A DNA stretch of 13,367 nt from Thermodesulfobacteriota bacterium (lineage in GTDB: Bacteria > Desulfobacterota > Binatia > Bin18): NCBI GenBank assembly GCA_964291405.2, contig OZ219925.1:1-13367 (forward strand), read 5' to 3'. The notes under the pieces were generated by a model. It ran no database searches, had not been told where the DNA came from, and saw nothing but the letters and a program-made list of their open reading frames with translations. A program made the position numbers and the translations under genes. Every line of letters starts with the position of its first letter. The first letter of the stretch is position 1. Shown in pieces: positions 2,575 through 12,421 of this stretch.

Positions 2575-3411
2575 TCAGCGGCCGGGGCCGGTCGGTTGCG
2601 ACAGTTCCCACCCGAACCATGATTGGAACCATTCATAGTCGCTTTGGTAGGCCGTATGCACCGTGGGCAATCCGTCGTCGCTTTTCTCCTTCAACAAGGT
2701 ATAGGTCCGCGGCCAGTTTTTGGTCCACCAGGATTTGAGTTCGCCCGGGGTAAACGGATGGTCATTGGGTTGACGAATGCCGGCGGCCGTAATCACATCG
2801 GTGAGCAGCGGCCAATAGCGGTCTTTCCCCAGGTTCAGGGTGCGGAAATGCTCACGGAGCAGAAACACGACCCACAACTCGGCGCTGTGTTTTTTATTGT
2901 GTTTGAACGGTTGCGTTTGCCGCAGGGGAATGGGGTCGAAATTCTTGATGGTTGACGTATAATCCGGCCCGCCGTAACTGCCCGCGACCTTGGCAATGTC
3001 CTGCAACATGTTGGCCAACTCGACCTCGACCACCGGTGAGGCAGACGGCGCCGGCTTGGGCTCAAAGGGGTTGACCGTCGTCAAGAGGTCAATCAGGGGT
3101 TTTAATTCGCGCAGGCGCGTCACTGCGGCATTCAGGATCTGCGCCGATTCCAACCAGTAATCCGGATCGTGTTTGGAAACGCGTTCACGACCCGGCGGGG
3201 GCAACACGATGGGGATCCAATGGCGCACCAGGACGAACAGGATGTACGGCATGTCCCCATCGACTTCCGCTACGCGGTCCAACACGTTGTGGGGCGTGGC
3301 CGCGTTGTCAAAGAACTGCTCGACCTTCTCCCGGATGTGGAGCCGTTGCCCGAGCGCGATCCACCACCGTGCGTCGAGGTGAGGTCGGTCGGGTCGAGTC
3401 ATAGGCGGCAT
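2575..3411 (-). CDS. Hypothetical protein (about 275 aa; start ATG 3411 or 3402)
   Basis: Long protein-like ORF. The 5' extension to 3708 in the ORF track runs through the repeat and gpmA and is not credible. Confidence 0.7.
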   Translation of the reverse strand: MPPMTRPDRPHLDARWWIALGQRLHIREKVEQFFDNAATPHNVLDRVAEVDGDMPYILFVLVRHWIPIVLPPPGRERVSKHDPDYWLESAQILNAAVTRLRELKPLIDLLTTVNPFEPKPAPSASPVVEVELANMLQDIAKVAGSYGGPDYTSTIKNFDPIPLRQTQPFKHNKKHSAELWVVFLLREHFRTLNLGKDRYWPLLTDVITAAGIRQPNDHPFTPGELKSWWTKNWPRTYTLLKEKSDDGLPTVHTAYQSDYEWFQSWFGWELSQPTGPGR

Positions 3412-3520
3412 GACGGTTGTCTCGGAGGCGTGATCCTGTCGGAACTGACGGGGAGCGGGACGTGCTTGGCATGGTACGGGGTGCGGCCGAGCAAAGCAAG
3501 GGGAGAGCACCAGGCGGCCT

Positions 3521-3594
3521 GTAGGGGCGAACCGGAGCCTGCCCTGCCTGTCCTGAGCGAAGTCGAAGGAAGCGAAGTGAATGGGTGTTCGCCC
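3521..3594 (+). repeat. GTAG-type REP carrying two nested 24-nt inserts
   Basis: GTAGGGGCGAACCGGAG [CCTGCCCTG [CCTGTCCTGAGCGAAGTCGAAGGA] AGCGAAGTGAATGGG] TGTTCGCCC; REP stem GGGCGAAC/GTTCGCCC. Confidence 0.9.
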
Positions 3595-3616
3595 GGTTTG
3601 CACATGAGGAGGACGC

Positions 3617-4222
3617 ATGAAACAACTCGTCTTGATTCGCCACGGTGAATCACAATGGAATCTTGAAAACCGGTTTACCGGGTGGGTGGACGTCCCCCTC
3701 AGCCCCAAGGGCGAGCAGGAAGCGAGGGAAGCAGGAGAGAAACTCCGGACTTTCCGGTTTGATCACGCCTTTACCTCCGTGTTGACGCGGGCCATCAAAA
3801 CCCTGGAGATCGTGTTGGACGTGATCGGCCAATCCGGGCTGCCGGTCGAACAAGACCAGGCGTTGAACGAACGTATGTACGGGGATTTGCAAGGCCTCAA
3901 TAAGGCCGAAACTGCCAAACAATACGGAGAGGCCCAGGTGAAATTGTGGAGAAGAAGTTACGACGTGCGGCCCCCGGGTGGAGAAAGTCTCAAGGACACG
4001 GCCGAACGTGTGCTGCCCTATTACCGGGACCGGATCTGGCCGTGCCTCGCCAAAGGCGAAACGCTTCTGGTGGCCGCGCACGGGAACAGCCTGCGCGCCC
4101 TCGTCATGCACCTCGACCAACTCTCACGAGAAGAAGTGCTCGAACTGAACATCCCCACCGGCGCCCCGCTGCTCTATGAGCTGGACGACGAGGGCCAAGC
4201 CGTCGCCCACCGGTATCTCTAA
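3617..4222 (+). CDS. gpmA: 2,3-bisphosphoglycerate-dependent phosphoglycerate mutase
   Basis: [68 protein letters not shown]; strong GAGGAGG SD. Confidence 0.96.
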
Positions 4223-4274
4223 CCCCCTTTTTTTGCCGTCTGTCAGCCCCGATGAGCATTCCGTTTACTACGCA

Positions 4275-4302
4275 TTGACAAATAGATTGATCTGCGTATA
4301 CT
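4275..4302 (+). promoter_or_regulatory. Near-consensus sigma70 promoter
   Basis: TTGACA (4275-4280), 16-nt spacer, TATACT (4297-4302). An inverted repeat TACGCA (4269-4274)/TGCGTA (4293-4298) brackets the -35 box and overlaps the -10 box. Confidence 0.7.
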
Positions 4303-4308
4303 GCGAGA

Positions 4309-4590
4309 AGTTGTTCCGCGAAGTGAATTCCAGGTGAGTCCGGCAGGCAAACAACAGCAGCCTGAGGACCACGGCGTCCGGCGACCGGGCCATCTGGGAA
4401 TTCTGAAAGTTCCCCCGGGCCAAGATGTCCTACGAAAAGGCCACGGTGACAGGGGAACGTCAGCCTCGGAAAACAAAAACGAGAGTGGAAGGGGATCGCT
4501 CACGCCTCGGTGTGGCTCGTGAGAATCAGGTCCACGTCACTTTTTACGCAGACGTAGCACGAATTTAGCACAAAGAAGAGAACACACCGG
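4309..4590 (+). ncRNA. Candidate structured ncRNA or long 5' leader; I recognise no family
   Basis: Follows the strong promoter, has no credible ORF, and contains many short helices with purine-rich loops (see findings). Boundaries are approximate. Confidence 0.4.
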
Positions 4591-4630
4591 TTACAACGTG
4601 AGGGAAGGAACGGTCGAAGAAAGGAATACG

Positions 4631-4882
4631 ATGGAAGCCCCGAAGTTTAGCATCGCCCGCATTGTTATTGATGGAAACACCCGACAAATCACCGCGGAGT
4701 GCGCACTGGAGCATTCCGGGCACTCGATAAAACAAGCGAGCGTGACCCTCCCCCACACGGACGCGCTCGACTCGTGCCGGGAGTACGTCTTCAAGCACGT
4801 TTATCAGACGCTGTTTGAAGTGATCCGATTTGGCGCTCAAATTCCGAAAGCGCCCGAAGGACATGATCACGAACCGTCGTAG
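4631..4882 (+). CDS. Small hypothetical protein (83 aa)
   Basis: AAGGA SD 5 nt before ATG 4631; MEAPKFSIARIVIDG...; hairpin CCGTCGT/ACGACGG (4874-4892) overlaps the stop. Confidence 0.6.
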   Translation: MEAPKFSIARIVIDGNTRQITAECALEHSGHSIKQASVTLPHTDALDSCREYVFKHVYQTLFEVIRFGAQIPKAPEGHDHEPS

Positions 4883-5010
4883 GCCACGACGGGTCGGTCG
4901 CCTTCGCAAAATCCGGAAACATCTCCAGCAGCGACGGTAAATTCTCGTGCTGAACGGGCCTTTGTCTGGCGTGCGATACGTGTTTATGGTACGGTCTGTA
5001 TCACTCTAAG

Positions 5011-5472
5011 ATGAAGAGGAAACTTCACCTCATTGGGAAACTACACCCCGCTGCCGGGGGGCTGGCGCTTCTGATTATCGCGGCGTTCTGGGTCTCGACG
5101 CTCGGCTCGGAACTCTTCGGCACGGAGGACGACATCAGGACCGTCAAGCTGATGATTCCCTGGGGCTTCTTGGTGCTCATTCCGTCACTCGCCCTGGCAG
5201 GAGGTACGGGCCATGTGCTCGGTCGCGGTCGAACAGACCGATTGGTCGCTCGCAAGGGCAAGCGGATGCCGTTCATCGCCGCCAATGGCATCGTCATCCT
5301 GATTCCGGCCGCGCTGTTTCTGGCCTACAAGGCCGATGCCTACGCATTCGACACAACCTTCTATGCGGTACAGGTCCTGGAACTGGTCATGGGGGCGCTG
5401 AACATCGCGCTCCTGGGCCTGAACCTGGTCGATGGCCTTCGGCTGACGGGCCCGCGTGCTCCTACATCATAA
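5011..5472 (+). CDS. Conserved hypothetical four-helix membrane protein
   Basis: Four hydrophobic segments; HPAAG..., IPWGFLVLIP, KRMPFIAANG and FYAVQVLEL resemble a widespread uncharacterised family. Confidence 0.75.
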   Translation: MKRKLHLIGKLHPAAGGLALLIIAAFWVSTLGSELFGTEDDIRTVKLMIPWGFLVLIPSLALAGGTGHVLGRGRTDRLVARKGKRMPFIAANGIVILIPAALFLAYKADAYAFDTTFYAVQVLELVMGALNIALLGLNLVDGLRLTGPRAPTS

Positions 5473-5480
5473 TCATATTT

Positions 5481-5530
5481 GTAGGGGACGGCCTGTGCCT
5501 GCCCTGAACGAAGCCGAAGGGTGCCGTCCC
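5481..5530 (+). repeat. GTAG-type REP with one 24-nt insert
   Basis: GTAGGGGACGGCCTGTG [CCTGCCCTGAACGAAGCCGAAGGG, 5498-5521] TGCCGTCCC; stem GGGACGGC/GCCGTCCC. Confidence 0.9.
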
Positions 5531-5535
5531 GTCTG

Positions 5536-5606
5536 AACCCCCCTGCCCCGCTTGTCAGGGGGGAACGGAGGTCTGCGTCCCCCTGATAAGGGGGATTGAG
5601 GGGGTT
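5536..5606. repeat. Inverted pair of C/G-run palindromic repeats
   Basis: AACCCCCCTGCCCCGCTTGTCAGGGGGGA (5536-5564) is an imperfect match to the reverse complement of 5578-5606 (AACCCCCTCAATCCCCCTTATCAGGGGGA). Confidence 0.75.
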
Positions 5607-5632
5607 ATCCCTACGACATTGCTGCTGCCGAC

Positions 5633-5660
5633 GTAGGGAACAACGATCGTTATTCCCTAT
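5633..5660. repeat. Double-ended GTAG-type palindrome
   Basis: GTAGGGAACAACGATCGTTATTCCCTAT, a near-perfect 28-nt palindrome between convergent genes. Confidence 0.75.
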
Positions 5661-5670
5661 GGGCTGAGAA

Positions 5671-6012
5671 TTAGAAGCGCCGTCGCTTGACCGGAAGGGA
5701 CTCGGCAAACTTCGCCGCCCGGCGCACCCACGTTTTCAAATCCTTGTCCGATTCGATGCCCGACGGCTCAACCAGCGCCCATCCTTTCATGATTCGTCCC
5801 GTGATATCGAACGGCTTCGTGTGCGGTATCGCCAGAGTCTCGTCGTGATGTGTTCTATCGAGCCGTACGATGAGCGACCTCTTCCAGGCGCCCACGCACA
5901 TGTTCCCGTTGATCATGAAACAGACGCCGCCGAACATCTTCTTCTCGGAGAATCCCTTGCGCTGCGAGAGTATGGGGCGGATCCGTGCGGCCAACGCATC
6001 CTCGTTCCTCAT
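5671..6012 (-). CDS. TfoX/Sxy N-terminal domain protein
   Basis: EKKMFGGVCFMINGNM...LIVRL...PFDITGRIMKGWALV...DLKTWV...FAESLP is the typical TfoX_N pattern. Confidence 0.85.
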   Translation of the reverse strand: MRNEDALAARIRPILSQRKGFSEKKMFGGVCFMINGNMCVGAWKRSLIVRLDRTHHDETLAIPHTKPFDITGRIMKGWALVEPSGIESDKDLKTWVRRAAKFAESLPVKRRRF

Positions 6013-6028
6013 ATCCGTTCTCCCATAC

Positions 6029-6526
6029 CTATCGCAGGGTTTCCTCGAGTTCGGCGACGAGTTCGCCGATCTCGTCGATCGGGACCAGGTCGAGCAAAAC
6101 CGCCAGCATGTGTTGCCGGTCGTGGGTCGCGATCACGTCGTCCTCCTCCAGCCCCTCGGCGGCGTCACTCAGGACCGCAATGGGTTCGCCGCCCTGTTGC
6201 GTGATGTCCTCCCAGGTTCGGTGCTTGCGTTCCATCGCGGCATAAAACTCATCGATGGGCACGTGAACCAGCCCGAACCGGCTGCCCCATTTGTCACGGA
6301 TCTGTTCGTGAATGACTTGGTGCATCCGGCTGCAAACGGGTTCGGGAATACTCACGCGTACGGCGCAGGTGATCCAATACAGGCTCAGGGCCAACAGTTC
6401 TTTGGTGAGGGCTTGCGCCTGTTGGGCGGTGAGGGTCAGTCCGTATTCTTCGAGGAAATCGGGGGCGACGGACGGGGGGATGAGTTGAACGAGAGCTTTC
6501 GCGGTCTCTTGGGCGTGTTCGGTCAT
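6029..6526 (-). CDS. Hypothetical acidic helical protein (165 aa)
   Basis: MTEHAQETAKALVQLIPP...; protein-like composition; stop lies 16 nt before the TfoX start, suggesting an operon. Confidence 0.7.
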   Translation of the reverse strand: MTEHAQETAKALVQLIPPSVAPDFLEEYGLTLTAQQAQALTKELLALSLYWITCAVRVSIPEPVCSRMHQVIHEQIRDKWGSRFGLVHVPIDEFYAAMERKHRTWEDITQQGGEPIAVLSDAAEGLEEDDVIATHDRQHMLAVLLDLVPIDEIGELVAELEETLR

Positions 6527-6690
6527 GGCGTGCTCGGGTGAGGGCTTTCGATGATCGCTTGGCAGCATACGCAGCAGGGCGTGGCTGAGGCAAGCCCTTC
6601 TCTTGACACTGAAACCCGGTGAATGCCACGCTTGCCCTGGCGATTTCTTTGATATCATCCTGATACAGAATAGACGGGGCAAGCACAGCG

Positions 6691-7068
6691 ATGTCCTATC
6701 TCCTGATGGCCATTGCGGGCTTATGGATGGCCGATGGGTTGGCCTTATTGGTGGCGCCCCTGTGGATCGTCGGACAGGTCAGGCAGGCCCTCGCGACCTC
6801 GCCTTCTCTCGCGAAATGGTCGGGGCTCACCCTGGTGGGAGGCATGATCCTGCTCCTGCAAGCGTCCGATCTGCCCTACCAGGTAGTATGGATGGTCACG
6901 GGGCTGGCCATGGTGGTGAAGGGCGGATTTTTTCTGTTGTCGAACGACGACGTTCGTCAGTCCGTGTTGCAGTGGGGCTTGAGCCGGGAGGCGGTGGATT
7001 ATCGGTTTTGGGGGCTTGGGTTGTGTACGCTCTCACTGTTGTTGATTCATGCGTGCGGGTGGCTGTAG
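6691..7068 (+). CDS. Small four-helix membrane protein (possibly DUF2065-like)
   Basis: Four hydrophobic segments; the stop TAG is supplied by the GTAG of a REP. Confidence 0.75.
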   Translation: MSYLLMAIAGLWMADGLALLVAPLWIVGQVRQALATSPSLAKWSGLTLVGGMILLLQASDLPYQVVWMVTGLAMVVKGGFFLLSNDDVRQSVLQWGLSREAVDYRFWGLGLCTLSLLLIHACGWL

Positions 7069-7114
7069 GGGTGGACCGGAGCCTGCCCTGAGCGAAGTGA
7101 ATGGGTGTCCGCCC
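7065..7114 (+). repeat. GTAG-type REP with one 24-nt insert
   Basis: GTAGGGGTGGACCGGAG [CCTGCCCTGAGCGAAGTGAATGGG, 7082-7105] TGTCCGCCC. The insert is identical to the outer insert of the 3521 copy. Confidence 0.9.
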
Positions 7115-7142
7115 TATCAAGGAAAGGGGCGTTGACGGGTTG

Positions 7143-7526
7143 ATGGCAGACCTCTTCATGGGAGTGACAAGTTTGGCTTGGGGGGTGGCCGGGTTGACGA
7201 TCGCCGTCGTGCCTGCGCTGGCGCCCGTCTGGTCCCGGCGGATTCTCCTGGATCCCTGGCCGCGGTTCTGGTTCGGGCAGGCGCTCCTGCTGATCGGGCT
7301 GTTGTTGATGATCGGCACCACGGGGCTCATGGGGTTTTGGCTCTGGGCGGTGTGCGGCGCGGTGGCCGCGATCAAGGCCTGCCTGTTGCTCGGGGCTCCG
7401 GTGTCGTGGCGGGAGCGAATGCTGCATTGGCTCGGCACGTGGCCGCCGTGGCTGTACCGGGTCGGCGGAACGCTCGATCTGGCCCTCGCGGTGGGCCTGG
7501 CCGCGGACCTCATACTCCATGGCTGA
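7143..7526 (+). CDS. Small four-helix membrane protein, probable paralog of 6691-7068
   Basis: Hydrophobic, with the same W..GL...P / W.V.G.....K / R...L.W / YR..G pattern as the upstream gene. Confidence 0.75.
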   Translation: MADLFMGVTSLAWGVAGLTIAVVPALAPVWSRRILLDPWPRFWFGQALLLIGLLLMIGTTGLMGFWLWAVCGAVAAIKACLLLGAPVSWRERMLHWLGTWPPWLYRVGGTLDLALAVGLAADLILHG

Positions 7527-7538
7527 GAAGGACGCCAT

Positions 7539-7591
7539 GCCGCATCAGATGCGGCTCCCTCACCCCTTCCCTCTCCCAGTGGGAGAGGGTG
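7539..7591. repeat. Two adjacent palindromes, including a CCCTCACCC..CCCTCTCCC/GGGAGAGGG-type dispersed repeat
   Basis: GCCGCATC-A-GATGCGGC (7539-7555), then CCCTCACCCCTT leading into CCCTCTCCCA-G-TGGGAGAGGG (7569-7589). Confidence 0.7.
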
Positions 7592-7618
7592 AACGGAGTG
7601 CCTGATGAGGGTGGCTTC

Positions 7619-7918
7619 ATGACTCAAGAGCACAATCAGGACCTGACCCGGCTGTGGGAGATCCACCAGGCGGCGAAATGGCCGGCCGGGGTGGGCTCGC
7701 GTGAGGGCGAACTCATGACCCTGGACACGGTGATCAGCGGGTGCGTCACCTATTTCTTCGAAGAGCGCGACCTCGACCCGCAACGCGTGGCGATTCTCGA
7801 AGATTGCCTCTCCGATCTGGAGGCCGCGCTGCCGGAACTGAGCGAGGAGTCCCTGGACTATTTCCAGCGGGTCAAACAGTTGGGCGCGTTGCTGCTGGAA
7901 ACAGGTCGCCGACCATGA
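7619..7918 (+). CDS. Hypothetical acidic helical protein (99 aa)
   Basis: GAGGG SD before ATG 7619; MTQEHNQDLTRLWEIHQAAKWP...LDTVISGCVTYF...YFQRVKQL. Confidence 0.7.
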   Translation: MTQEHNQDLTRLWEIHQAAKWPAGVGSREGELMTLDTVISGCVTYFFEERDLDPQRVAILEDCLSDLEAALPELSEESLDYFQRVKQLGALLLETGRRP

Positions 7919-11592: not shown

Positions 11593-12421
11593 TTATGCCG
11601 CCGCCGAGATTGGCGTGGGCTGGTTGAAATATGCCTGATCGGGCGTTTGTCCGCCAAGTGAGGAATGCGGTCTGCGCCGATTGTAGAATGCCAGATAGCG
11701 GGCCAGACCGCGACGCGCCTCCGAGACGCTCCGGTAAGCGCGCAGATAGACTTCCTCGTATTTGATCGTCCGCCAGAGCCGTTCGACAAAGATGTTGTCG
11801 CGCCACGCGCCCTTGCCGTCCATGCTGATGGCGATCTTAGCGTCCTGTAAGACCTTGAGAAAGGCGACGGAGGTGAACTGGCTGCCCTGATCCGTGTTCA
11901 TGATTGCAGGCAGGCCATACCGAGCTAGCGCGTCGCTCAATGCCTCCACGCACGGCCCCGTCTCCAGCGTAATCGAGAGTCGCCACGCGAGCACCTTGCG
12001 GCTGAACCAGTCGAGGACCGCCACCAGATACACGAACCCCCGCGCCATGGGCACATACGTGATGTCCATCGCCCACACGTGGTTCGGGCGGGTGACGGCC
12101 AGCTTCCTTAACAGATACGGGTAAATCTGGTGGCCCGGCGTCGGGGGCGACGTGGTCGGGCGCCGATACAGCGCCGCGATCCCCATCCGCTTCATCAGCG
12201 TGGCGACATGGAGGCGGCCCACCTCATGACCTTCCTGCCGGAGCAAGCAACATCATCCGACTGCCGGCAAAGGGATACTCCAAGTGCAACTCATCGATCC
12301 GGCGCATCAAGGCCAACTCGGCTACGGAGGCGGGACGGCGTTGGTAATAGACACTGCCGCGACTCATCCCCAGCAGCCGTGCTTGGCGGCTGACACTCAA
12401 GCGGTGCTCGCGGTCTATCAT
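11593..12421 (-). pseudogene. IS3 transposase OrfB (DDE), frameshifted near 12247
   Basis: The N-part MIDREHRLSVSRQARLL...EYPFAGSRM and the C-part LLRQEGHEVGRLHV...WAMDITY...NTDQGSQF...DNIFVERLWRTIKYE are in different frames. Confidence 0.85.

Follow-up and report, generated by a model that had tools for sequence, protein, structure and literature searches.

The complete contig OZ219925.1 of a Thermodesulfobacteriota bacterium (13,367 bases, hereafter the window) contains hairpins of the repetitive extragenic palindrome (REP) type whose loops are enlarged by a unit of 24 nucleotides (nt), which raises the question of whether so short a piece of DNA can move. According to the analysis presented here, this unit is mobile in the evolutionary sense, and both REP loops and the unit itself serve as its landing places. 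It is a discrete piece of DNA with exact presence/absence differences at orthologous sites, it nests in units of the same family, and it recurs across phyla; in other genomes, most REP loops are empty, and those that are filled have it at one fixed position.

The 24-nt unit in the window

The genome under study (G000; G-numbers designate coded genomes and X-numbers coded sequencing runs) consists of three contigs with a total length of 4.95 Mb, namely, C1 (38.7 kb), C2, which is the window, and C3 (4.9 Mb), which is the chromosome. Hairpins starting with GTAGGGG were found in the window at positions 3521, 5481 and 7065. Their arms are 8–9 bp long, and in all three the extra sequence follows REP base 17, with insert start positions 3538, 5498 and 7082, respectively. 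Minus 24 nt, each hairpin is 26 nt long and has a 6-nt loop, like the empty copy at 437. The coordinates, the letters of the inserts and the restored 26-nt REP agree with an earlier note on this DNA, made from its letters alone. The relevant features are as follows:

437-462, + strand: empty REP-like hairpin with arms GGGGACGGC / GCCGTCC and 6-nt loop CCCCGT; arms same as those of the filled 5481 copy
3521-3537, + strand: 5' part of REP, GTAG type; tag, arm GGGGCGAAC, loop start CGGAG
3538-3546, + strand: 5' nine bases of the outer unit; with 3571-3585 equal to 7082-7105
3547-3570, + strand: inner 24-nt unit of the genus type (T at position 5), nested between CCCTG and AGCG; same nesting on C1
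3571-3585, + strand: 3' fifteen bases of the outer unit (script join)
3586-3594, + strand: last loop base and 3' arm of REP, GTTCGCCC
5481-5497, + strand: 5' part of REP, GTAG type; arm GGGGACGGC, loop start CTGTG
5498-5521, + strand: 24-nt unit CCTGCCCTGAACGAAGCCGAAGGG, crossed by a contig of run X22
5522-5530, + strand: last loop base and 3' arm of REP, GCCGTCCC
7065-7081, + strand: 5' part of REP, GTAG type; arm GGGGTGGAC, loop start CGGAG; one compensated pair and one G-T wobble relative to 3521
7082-7105, + strand: 24-nt unit CCTGCCCTGAGCGAAGTGAATGGG, crossed by an X22 contig with 0 differences
7106-7114, + strand: last loop base and 3' arm of REP, GTCCGCCC

The insert at 3521 has a nested structure. 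At 3538-3585, the outer unit is broken after its ninth base by the inner unit CCTGTCCTGAGCGAAGTCGAAGGA (3547-3570), and the outer halves (3538-3546 and 3571-3585), when joined by script, match 7082-7105 at 24/24 positions, as the earlier note had read them. The inner unit matches the genus consensus except at its last base. A fourth composite with the same double nesting as at 3521 is located on C1 near 7112-7174 (92% identity, degenerate arms). The 16-nt core pattern CCTGYCCTGARCGAAG has three matches in the window compared with a mean of 0.00 in 200 shuffles, and in the full 4.95-Mb genome it was found only at the three window places.

Since the copies at 3521, at 7065 and on C1 have common loop flanks (CGGAG and T) and arms that differ by only one compensated pair and one G-T wobble, they are counted as one origin and probably descend from one composite; a common descent had already been suspected for the inserts at 3521 and 7065, and the C1 copy joins them. 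The unit at 5481 differs at 5/24 positions, and the arms and loop flanks around it are also different; it is therefore counted as a second origin. Unit boundaries in the window are resolvable only to about 1–2 nt, and no target duplication was seen at the window inserts. Analysis of the whole window using Rfam covariance models gave no matches at E up to 1.

Exact gain and loss of the unit in the genus

The unit also stands alone. In relaxed searches, the inner-type variant CCTGTCCTGAGCNNAGTCGAAGGG was found by itself at about ten intergenic places on C3, and one tandem pair of 24-mers is located at C3:980061-980108. The genus pattern was detected in 19 of the 24 other same-genus genomes, with 0–16 matches in each genome (both orientations summed) and 9 in G000; the reversed-pattern control gave 0 matches throughout the same-genus genomes. 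The 24-mer is thus not confined to the composite repeat, a point that the earlier note had proposed to check.

The two central bases of the unit vary freely. In G000, the unit is part of a wider set with the ends CCTGAGC and GTCGAAGG, and 2–3 to about 21 further bases are located between them, often as a small hairpin. Most G000 copies sit in plain intercistronic spacers; hairpins are therefore not the exclusive target, although REP loops are indeed used. In four cases on the chromosome, a copy that ends in GAAGGG takes up the short spacer from a stop codon to the next ribosome-binding site, in the sense orientation. The gene-relative orientation of the G000 copies is mixed, and some are antisense (naive open reading frames, ORFs).

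Three chromosomal sites were compared between genomes. At C3:2908865, in the spacer that separates a stop codon from the following ribosome-binding site, 5 of the 22 readable loci are filled (G000, G010, G023, G015 and G013) and the other 17 are exactly 24 nt shorter; the empty genome G007 has flanks 99–100% identical to those of G000. The 26 readable loci at C3:2934109 comprise 6 with the 24-mer, 2 longer forms (G002 and G022, +10 and +25 nt, respectively), 16 empty sites and 2 unrelated spacers. The deep-branching (outgroup) clade is empty at this site, which indicates that the empty state is the older one. As for C3:3648794, the 10 readable loci comprise one filled locus, that of G000, and 9 empty ones; the G000 copy has the same sequence as the copies at C3:2908865 and C3:4665159.

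No partial unit is present at the empty orthologous sites. The junctions at the three chromosomal sites show no duplication beyond a 1-nt ambiguity, in line with the earlier note, and no common motif. Neither terminal inverted repeats nor a target-site duplication, the features of a miniature inverted-repeat transposable element (MITE), were found at any junction read. The comparison of orthologous loci that the note had suggested thus revealed exact 24-nt differences at 3/3 chromosomal sites, whereas the window sites differ by whole REPs in run X1, as described below.

In a quick-method tree of the 1.7-kb flanks, filled loci are distributed patchily, and the sister pairs G000/G007, G010/G042 and G015/G018 differ. 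To explain this distribution, one has to assume multiple gains, multiple precise losses or recombination between species. Two unit haplotypes that cut across the tree at C3:2934109 point to some recombination.

In addition, four of the five genomes filled at C3:2908865 (all but G000) share an insert of ~85 nt further upstream, AAAAGAGTAAACGTGTCC... (L179, L181, L187, L193). This insert is a hairpin-like repeat and was seen again at C3:3648794 in G041.

The unit in REP loops of other genomes

The REP of the form GTCGGACA-loop-TGTCCGAC was found in three Terriglobia genomes in 284, 231 and 76 copies, respectively, mostly with the 4-nt loop (A/G/T)GAG. The loop contains the unit in 28, 24 and 4 of them, counted among the matches listed (about 5–10% filled). 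The unit is always in one orientation and at one position, and it adds 25 nt to the empty form. For two REPs with the unit in G044, the corresponding gene neighbourhood was located in the other Terriglobia species. The first is filled in G046, with a compensated arm change, and empty in G045; the second is filled in G044 and empty in G045. Filled and empty states were thus found at 2/2 orthologous REPs, which indicates that the unit enters or leaves a REP that is already there.

REPs with the arms of the 5481 and 437 hairpins are common in JGI metagenomes (132 matches, 107 of them with a 6-nt loop), and the unit was found in 0/132. The absence of filled copies and the predominance of the 6-nt loop fit the claim of the earlier note that removal of the 24 nt restores a normal REP.

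A family of perfect 28-nt palindromes with a 4-nt loop, GTAGGGGCAATTCATGAATTGCCCCTAC, occupies 21 sites on C3 (e.g., 79912 and 1070486), and no copy holds the unit.

The same unit across phyla

A near-identical 25-mer, GCCTGCCCTGAGCGAAGYCGAAGGG, was found in species-representative genomes of many phyla, often in the loops of unrelated hairpins. A search with the pattern GCCTGCCCTGARCGAAGN{1,2}GAANGG revealed at least 120 stretches in species-representative genomes, where well under one is expected by chance (simple arithmetic). According to the record titles, the commonest hosts among the matches listed are Acidobacteriaceae and Terriglobia; the further hosts among them are Anaerolineae, Dehalococcoidia, Chloroflexia, Verrucomicrobiota, Planctomycetota, Patescibacteria, Nitrospirales, Alpha- and Betaproteobacteria, Gemmatimonadales, Armatimonadota and others. 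The first 23 bases of the 7082 unit of the window, together with the preceding G, recur in an Anaerolineales metagenome-assembled genome (L063).

Two forms account for 104 of the 139 copies tallied among the matches listed (15 of the 139 come from viral contigs), and the consensus of the family is (A)GCCTG(C/T)CCTGAGC-NN-AG(T/C)CGAAGGG. The base before the unit is A in 114/139 copies, and the base after it is not conserved. Perfect inverted flanks of at least 6 bp within 12 nt were detected for 26/124 genome copies compared with 27/620 when the 3' flanks were permuted. The flanking stems represent a dozen or more unrelated hairpins, and the unit usually abuts the 3' arm. Other cross-phylum copies lie within related CCTGAGC...CGAAGG elements, directly after GAAG.

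A search of plasmids gave 7 weak or short matches, and a Nostoc plasmid contains one weak 25-nt match (92%, E 0.8). On the Trichlorobacter lovleyi plasmid NZ_CP058410.1 (L424), which has 6 matching places, the unit is located in frame in the 3' part of an annotated IS91-family (Y2_Tnp) transposase gene (locus 3001-3029). This gene adjoins an ISL3 transposase, qacEdelta1 and sul1.

Two other identities were considered for the sequence and dropped. The core motifs do not fit a hammerhead or k-turn reading of the CCUGAGC...GUCGAAGG core, and outside the repeat family, no site within 5 mismatches was found that would point to rRNA or another universal RNA as the origin.

Window sites in other sequencing runs and genomes

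The runs that contain the window stretch are labelled sponge metagenome or are named for a coded organism; X22 contains 0.97 of the sampled words and is possibly the sample from which the genome came. Short-read contigs of X22 span the composites at 5481 (3 differences) and 7065 (0 differences). At 3521, the X22 and X23 contigs end at 3572 inside the nest, as is expected at a repeat, and no bridging piece is present among those listed; stretches that lack contig cover were left out of the evidence. Two contigs of X2 end within the 7082 unit, one on each side, which fits a filled REP there. The contigs of X1 were placed at a min_likeness of 85 and may come from a related organism; they omit 18 letters at 437. 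As for orthologues of window positions 2600-7700, only a histidine-phosphatase gene (64–70% identity) was found in the 27 other genomes of the genus.

Interpretation and alternative explanations

The best explanation as a whole, and a fairly probable one, is that of a tiny non-autonomous module pasted in a structure-directed manner, with window composites that were ready-made. The inserts would be copies of a non-coding, non-autonomous dispersed module of 24–25 nt. New copies would be pasted without target duplication into exposed single-stranded places, and the landing places would be the 3' side of REP loops, short intergenic spacers and other copies of the family. The composites of the window would have formed by insertion and then spread or been acquired as whole REPs. 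From the micro-transposon of the earlier note, this explanation keeps a discrete, non-autonomous, self-nesting unit that is precisely gained and lost; the fixed REP-loop site is kept on the evidence of other genomes.

Several observations weigh against this explanation. The contigs of X1, a diverged relative, join 3504 to 3602 with the whole REP region skipped, 5452 to 5673 with 103 other letters between, and 7064 to 7128 with 20 other letters between. A REP-without-unit allele of the three window sites was not found among the contig rows listed, the composite of REP and unit occurs in 0/27 other genus genomes, and none of the GTAGGGG-type short-loop hairpins of C3 (52 strand-wise matches, perfect palindromes counted twice) holds a unit. 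The patchy distribution in the flank tree could reflect recombination between species and not repeated insertion or excision. According to nearest-neighbour models, folding of the unit by itself is weak (-0.6 to -0.9 kcal/mol, z about 0.4 to 0.9) and not better than that of shuffles. Finally, no enzyme was identified by the Y1 comparison or the neighbour-gene scan described in the next section. The whole-REP differences in X1 and the absence of composites from the 27 genomes favour ready-made composites that arrived or spread; most likely, therefore, the composites of the window were acquired or spread as whole REPs.

The same data can be taken further, namely, that in G000 the 24-mer is immobile alone and the long-loop REP is a variant, the composite being copied or acquired whole, and that the three window copies carry no information on insertion of the 24-mer. 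The chance of this is rated only slightly below even. Whole REP regions are absent or replaced in X1 at all three sites, the copies at 3521, at 7065 and on C1 share loop flanks and nearly the same arms, the composite is missing from 27/27 other genus genomes, and long-loop variants are known among GTAG REPs according to the available excerpt of PMC3733652. Such an explanation does not account for the unit alone at about ten C3 sites, with a precise 24-nt indel there. The 5481 copy, with different arms, loop flanks and unit (5/24), indicates that at least two composites formed, and REPs with its arms are empty in 132/132 metagenome matches, which means that the composite must at some point have arisen by insertion.

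A selected functional motif (an RNA- or DNA-binding or processing site, or a translation-start helper), held constant across phyla by its function and spread by gene transfer and recombination and not as a selfish element, is an unlikely source of the pattern. For copies directly ahead of ribosome-binding sites, a selected function may apply, but the orientation of copies is mixed. The almost identical sequence in many phyla would suit it, as would the four sense copies on C3 that end in GAAGGG between stop codon and ribosome-binding site, but other copies are antisense to neighbouring genes, many lie in REP loops or within other repeats, and one is in frame in a transposase gene. Moreover, Rfam gave no match at E up to 1, and the closest relatives lack the unit at the same sites.

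Less probable still is local slippage or template switching on a pentamer-periodic, hairpin-prone sequence with no transfer between loci. The 3' half of the unit does consist of three pentamers (AGCGA AGTCG AAGGG), and the pentamer period is kept in the longer forms of G002 and G022 (+10 and +25 nt) at C3:2934109; tandem 24-mers are present at C3:980061-980108. Slippage explains these pentamer-periodic long forms, but not the identical 24-mers at unrelated loci with unrelated flanks. In addition, the order of the nest is A1-A2-B-B' and not tandem, the reconstituted units match independent family members (outer 24/24, inner 23/24), and the empty orthologous sites have no partial unit to slip.

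An assembly artefact at the nested 3521 copy is very improbable: the X22 and X23 contigs halt at 3572 and no listed piece bridges the nest, but a contig break is expected at a repeat, the other two composites are crossed cleanly, and the same nesting is present on C1 with different flanks and 92% identity.

Possible mechanism of transfer

For the pasted module, a copy-and-paste process by a trans-acting, structure-directed host activity on single-stranded DNA is proposed with moderate confidence. The unit is sharply bounded, and its landing places are exposed in structure but unlike one another in sequence. Copying would take place in trans by a host-encoded activity that responds more to the structure of the DNA than to the sequence of the flanks. 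The 3' half of the unit contains CGAAG twice; GCGAAGC is present in half of the cross-phylum copies tallied, and the 7082 unit has GCGAAGT. The CGAAG/GCGAAGC mini-hairpin core may stall synthesis or mark the unit ends.

A wider proposal is more tentative and at present looks somewhat doubtful. The near-identical 24–25-nt family, found from Acidobacteriota to Chloroflexota, Patescibacteria and a sponge symbiont, could be one active pan-bacterial mobile element of the smallest class known. It would have no dedicated transposase, and a universal host process (replication or repair at extruded hairpins) would paste the units into hairpin loops and single-stranded intergenic places and so build the nested 'Russian doll' repeats found in many genomes.

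The earlier note had suggested an HUH (Y1) enzyme as the partner of the unit, and the data from the genus do not support it. Y1 genes were found in 13 of the 28 genus genomes and do not track the numbers of units; eight genomes with 3–15 units have no Y1 match. The sole Y1_Tnp match in G000 (C3:982103-982333) is interrupted by a MITE of ~175 nt, and the REPs on its flanks are of another type; C1 and C2 have no such match. A gene for a REP-associated tyrosine transposase (RAYT) flanked by window-type REPs was not found in G000. The G000 copies show no replication-strand bias (22 vs. 23; small n, origin from GC skew). Among 184 candidate flanking ORFs, 130 were scanned (naive calls) and gave 137 Pfam families, the commonest of which was found in 3 ORFs; no enrichment of a transposase or nuclease beside the copies was detected among the 130 ORFs. 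The three Terriglobia genomes do have Y1 genes, so that the exclusion of an IS200/IS605-like Y1 link does not extend to every genome.

The region of the split gene (C3:981616-982400, L173) is rich in repeats. The Y1_Tnp (RAYT-like) gene is flanked by GGGAGTGCGGGCTTCCAGCCCGC-type REPs, and the MITE that splits it has the ends CTAGAGC...GCTCTAG and holds CCTGAGC...GTCGAAG modules; the MITE core CCTGAGC...GTCGAAGG has at least 6 copies in G000. Beside this region, at C3:980700-981300, there is an ORF of many tandem repeats of ~45 nt (peptide ...DIEALRQETK...).

Relation to known systems

The closest known kind of the 24-nt unit is the small dispersed repeats (SDRs) of Nostoc. SDR1-8 of Nostoc punctiforme and its relatives are reportedly dispersed, non-coding and 21–27 nt long, and are said to show insertion differences between related genomes and mutual nesting. 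They are also said to be nearly limited to heterocyst-forming cyanobacteria, and to our knowledge no enzyme is known for them. The unit described here resembles the SDRs, as these are described, in its length of 24–25 nt, its dispersed and non-coding nature, its exact presence or absence at orthologous sites and its self-nesting. It differs, in a comparison by description, in its occurrence with nearly the same sequence in a sponge-associated genus and many phyla, and in its fixed place in REP loops. Full-text searches of the available literature gave no description of the 24-nt family, whether by concept or by sequence string; the latter gave only unrelated primer matches.

The host hairpins in the window are GTAG-tagged palindromes, as are known REPs. 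According to the available excerpts, GTAG-tagged REPs include families with variable loops of up to 27 bp, and repeats with unusual loops were discarded from the counts (Di Nocera et al., 2013, PMC3733652); REPs and REPINs are mobilised by RAYT (Y1) transposases (Bertels and Rainey, 2011, PMC3116915). In contrast to REPs and REPINs, the 24-mer is not palindromic, has no GTAG tag and also occurs far from REPs. In the excerpt of PMC3733652, long loops are not treated as a separate passenger common to several families.

IS200/IS605 elements and their non-autonomous derivatives, as described in the available excerpt of Quentin et al. (2018, PMC6006769), share with the unit the lack of target duplication and the preference for hairpin or single-stranded DNA. 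The features of these elements that the 24-mer lacks are the subterminal hairpin pair, the conserved target tetranucleotide, the strand bias and the co-occurrence with Y1. As for the core of the unit, GCGNAGC and GCGNNAGC are described in the excerpted part of PMC13037366 as very stable DNA mini-hairpins, a physical property of oligonucleotides. In the commonest cross-phylum forms, GCGAAGC or two copies of CGAAG are present in the 3' half; the subject of that excerpt, however, is oligonucleotides and not a genomic element, and the 7082 unit has GCGAAGT.

Other features of the contig

Window 5536-5606, just after the 5481 REP, is a short repeat (C-rich and G-rich hairpins) that recurs in several genomes of the genus. 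The bin with this repeat has a summed contig depth of 3,000–14,000 in four runs compared with about 10–250 in most other bins. Repeats of ~33 nt at 7557-7589 and 4068-4101 have many copies in the genus at 85–100% identity, which indicates that C2 belongs to the genus, though no species representative has the region. The histidine-phosphatase gene at 3617-4222 is a second, diverged copy (67% identity to the chromosomal one at C3:2125977-2126466), and C2 ends in a fragment of an IS3-family integrase (11593-12246). C2 may be an accessory or acquired segment.

Significance

Terminal repeats and a transposase are commonly regarded as the minimum requirement for mobile DNA. The 24-base module ranks among the smallest mobile DNA pieces known. 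Its size, its exact gain and loss, its letter-for-letter recurrence across phyla and its preference for hairpin loops would imply an undescribed way of moving DNA, which would also explain the nested look of REP loops and intergenic repeats in many genomes. Precisely gained and lost units could serve as very short natural markers for strain typing, and for genome annotation they are a warning that a small insert, in frame or upstream, may be a mobile module. Where a copy has landed in the spacer from a stop codon to the following ribosome-binding site, gene expression could be altered.

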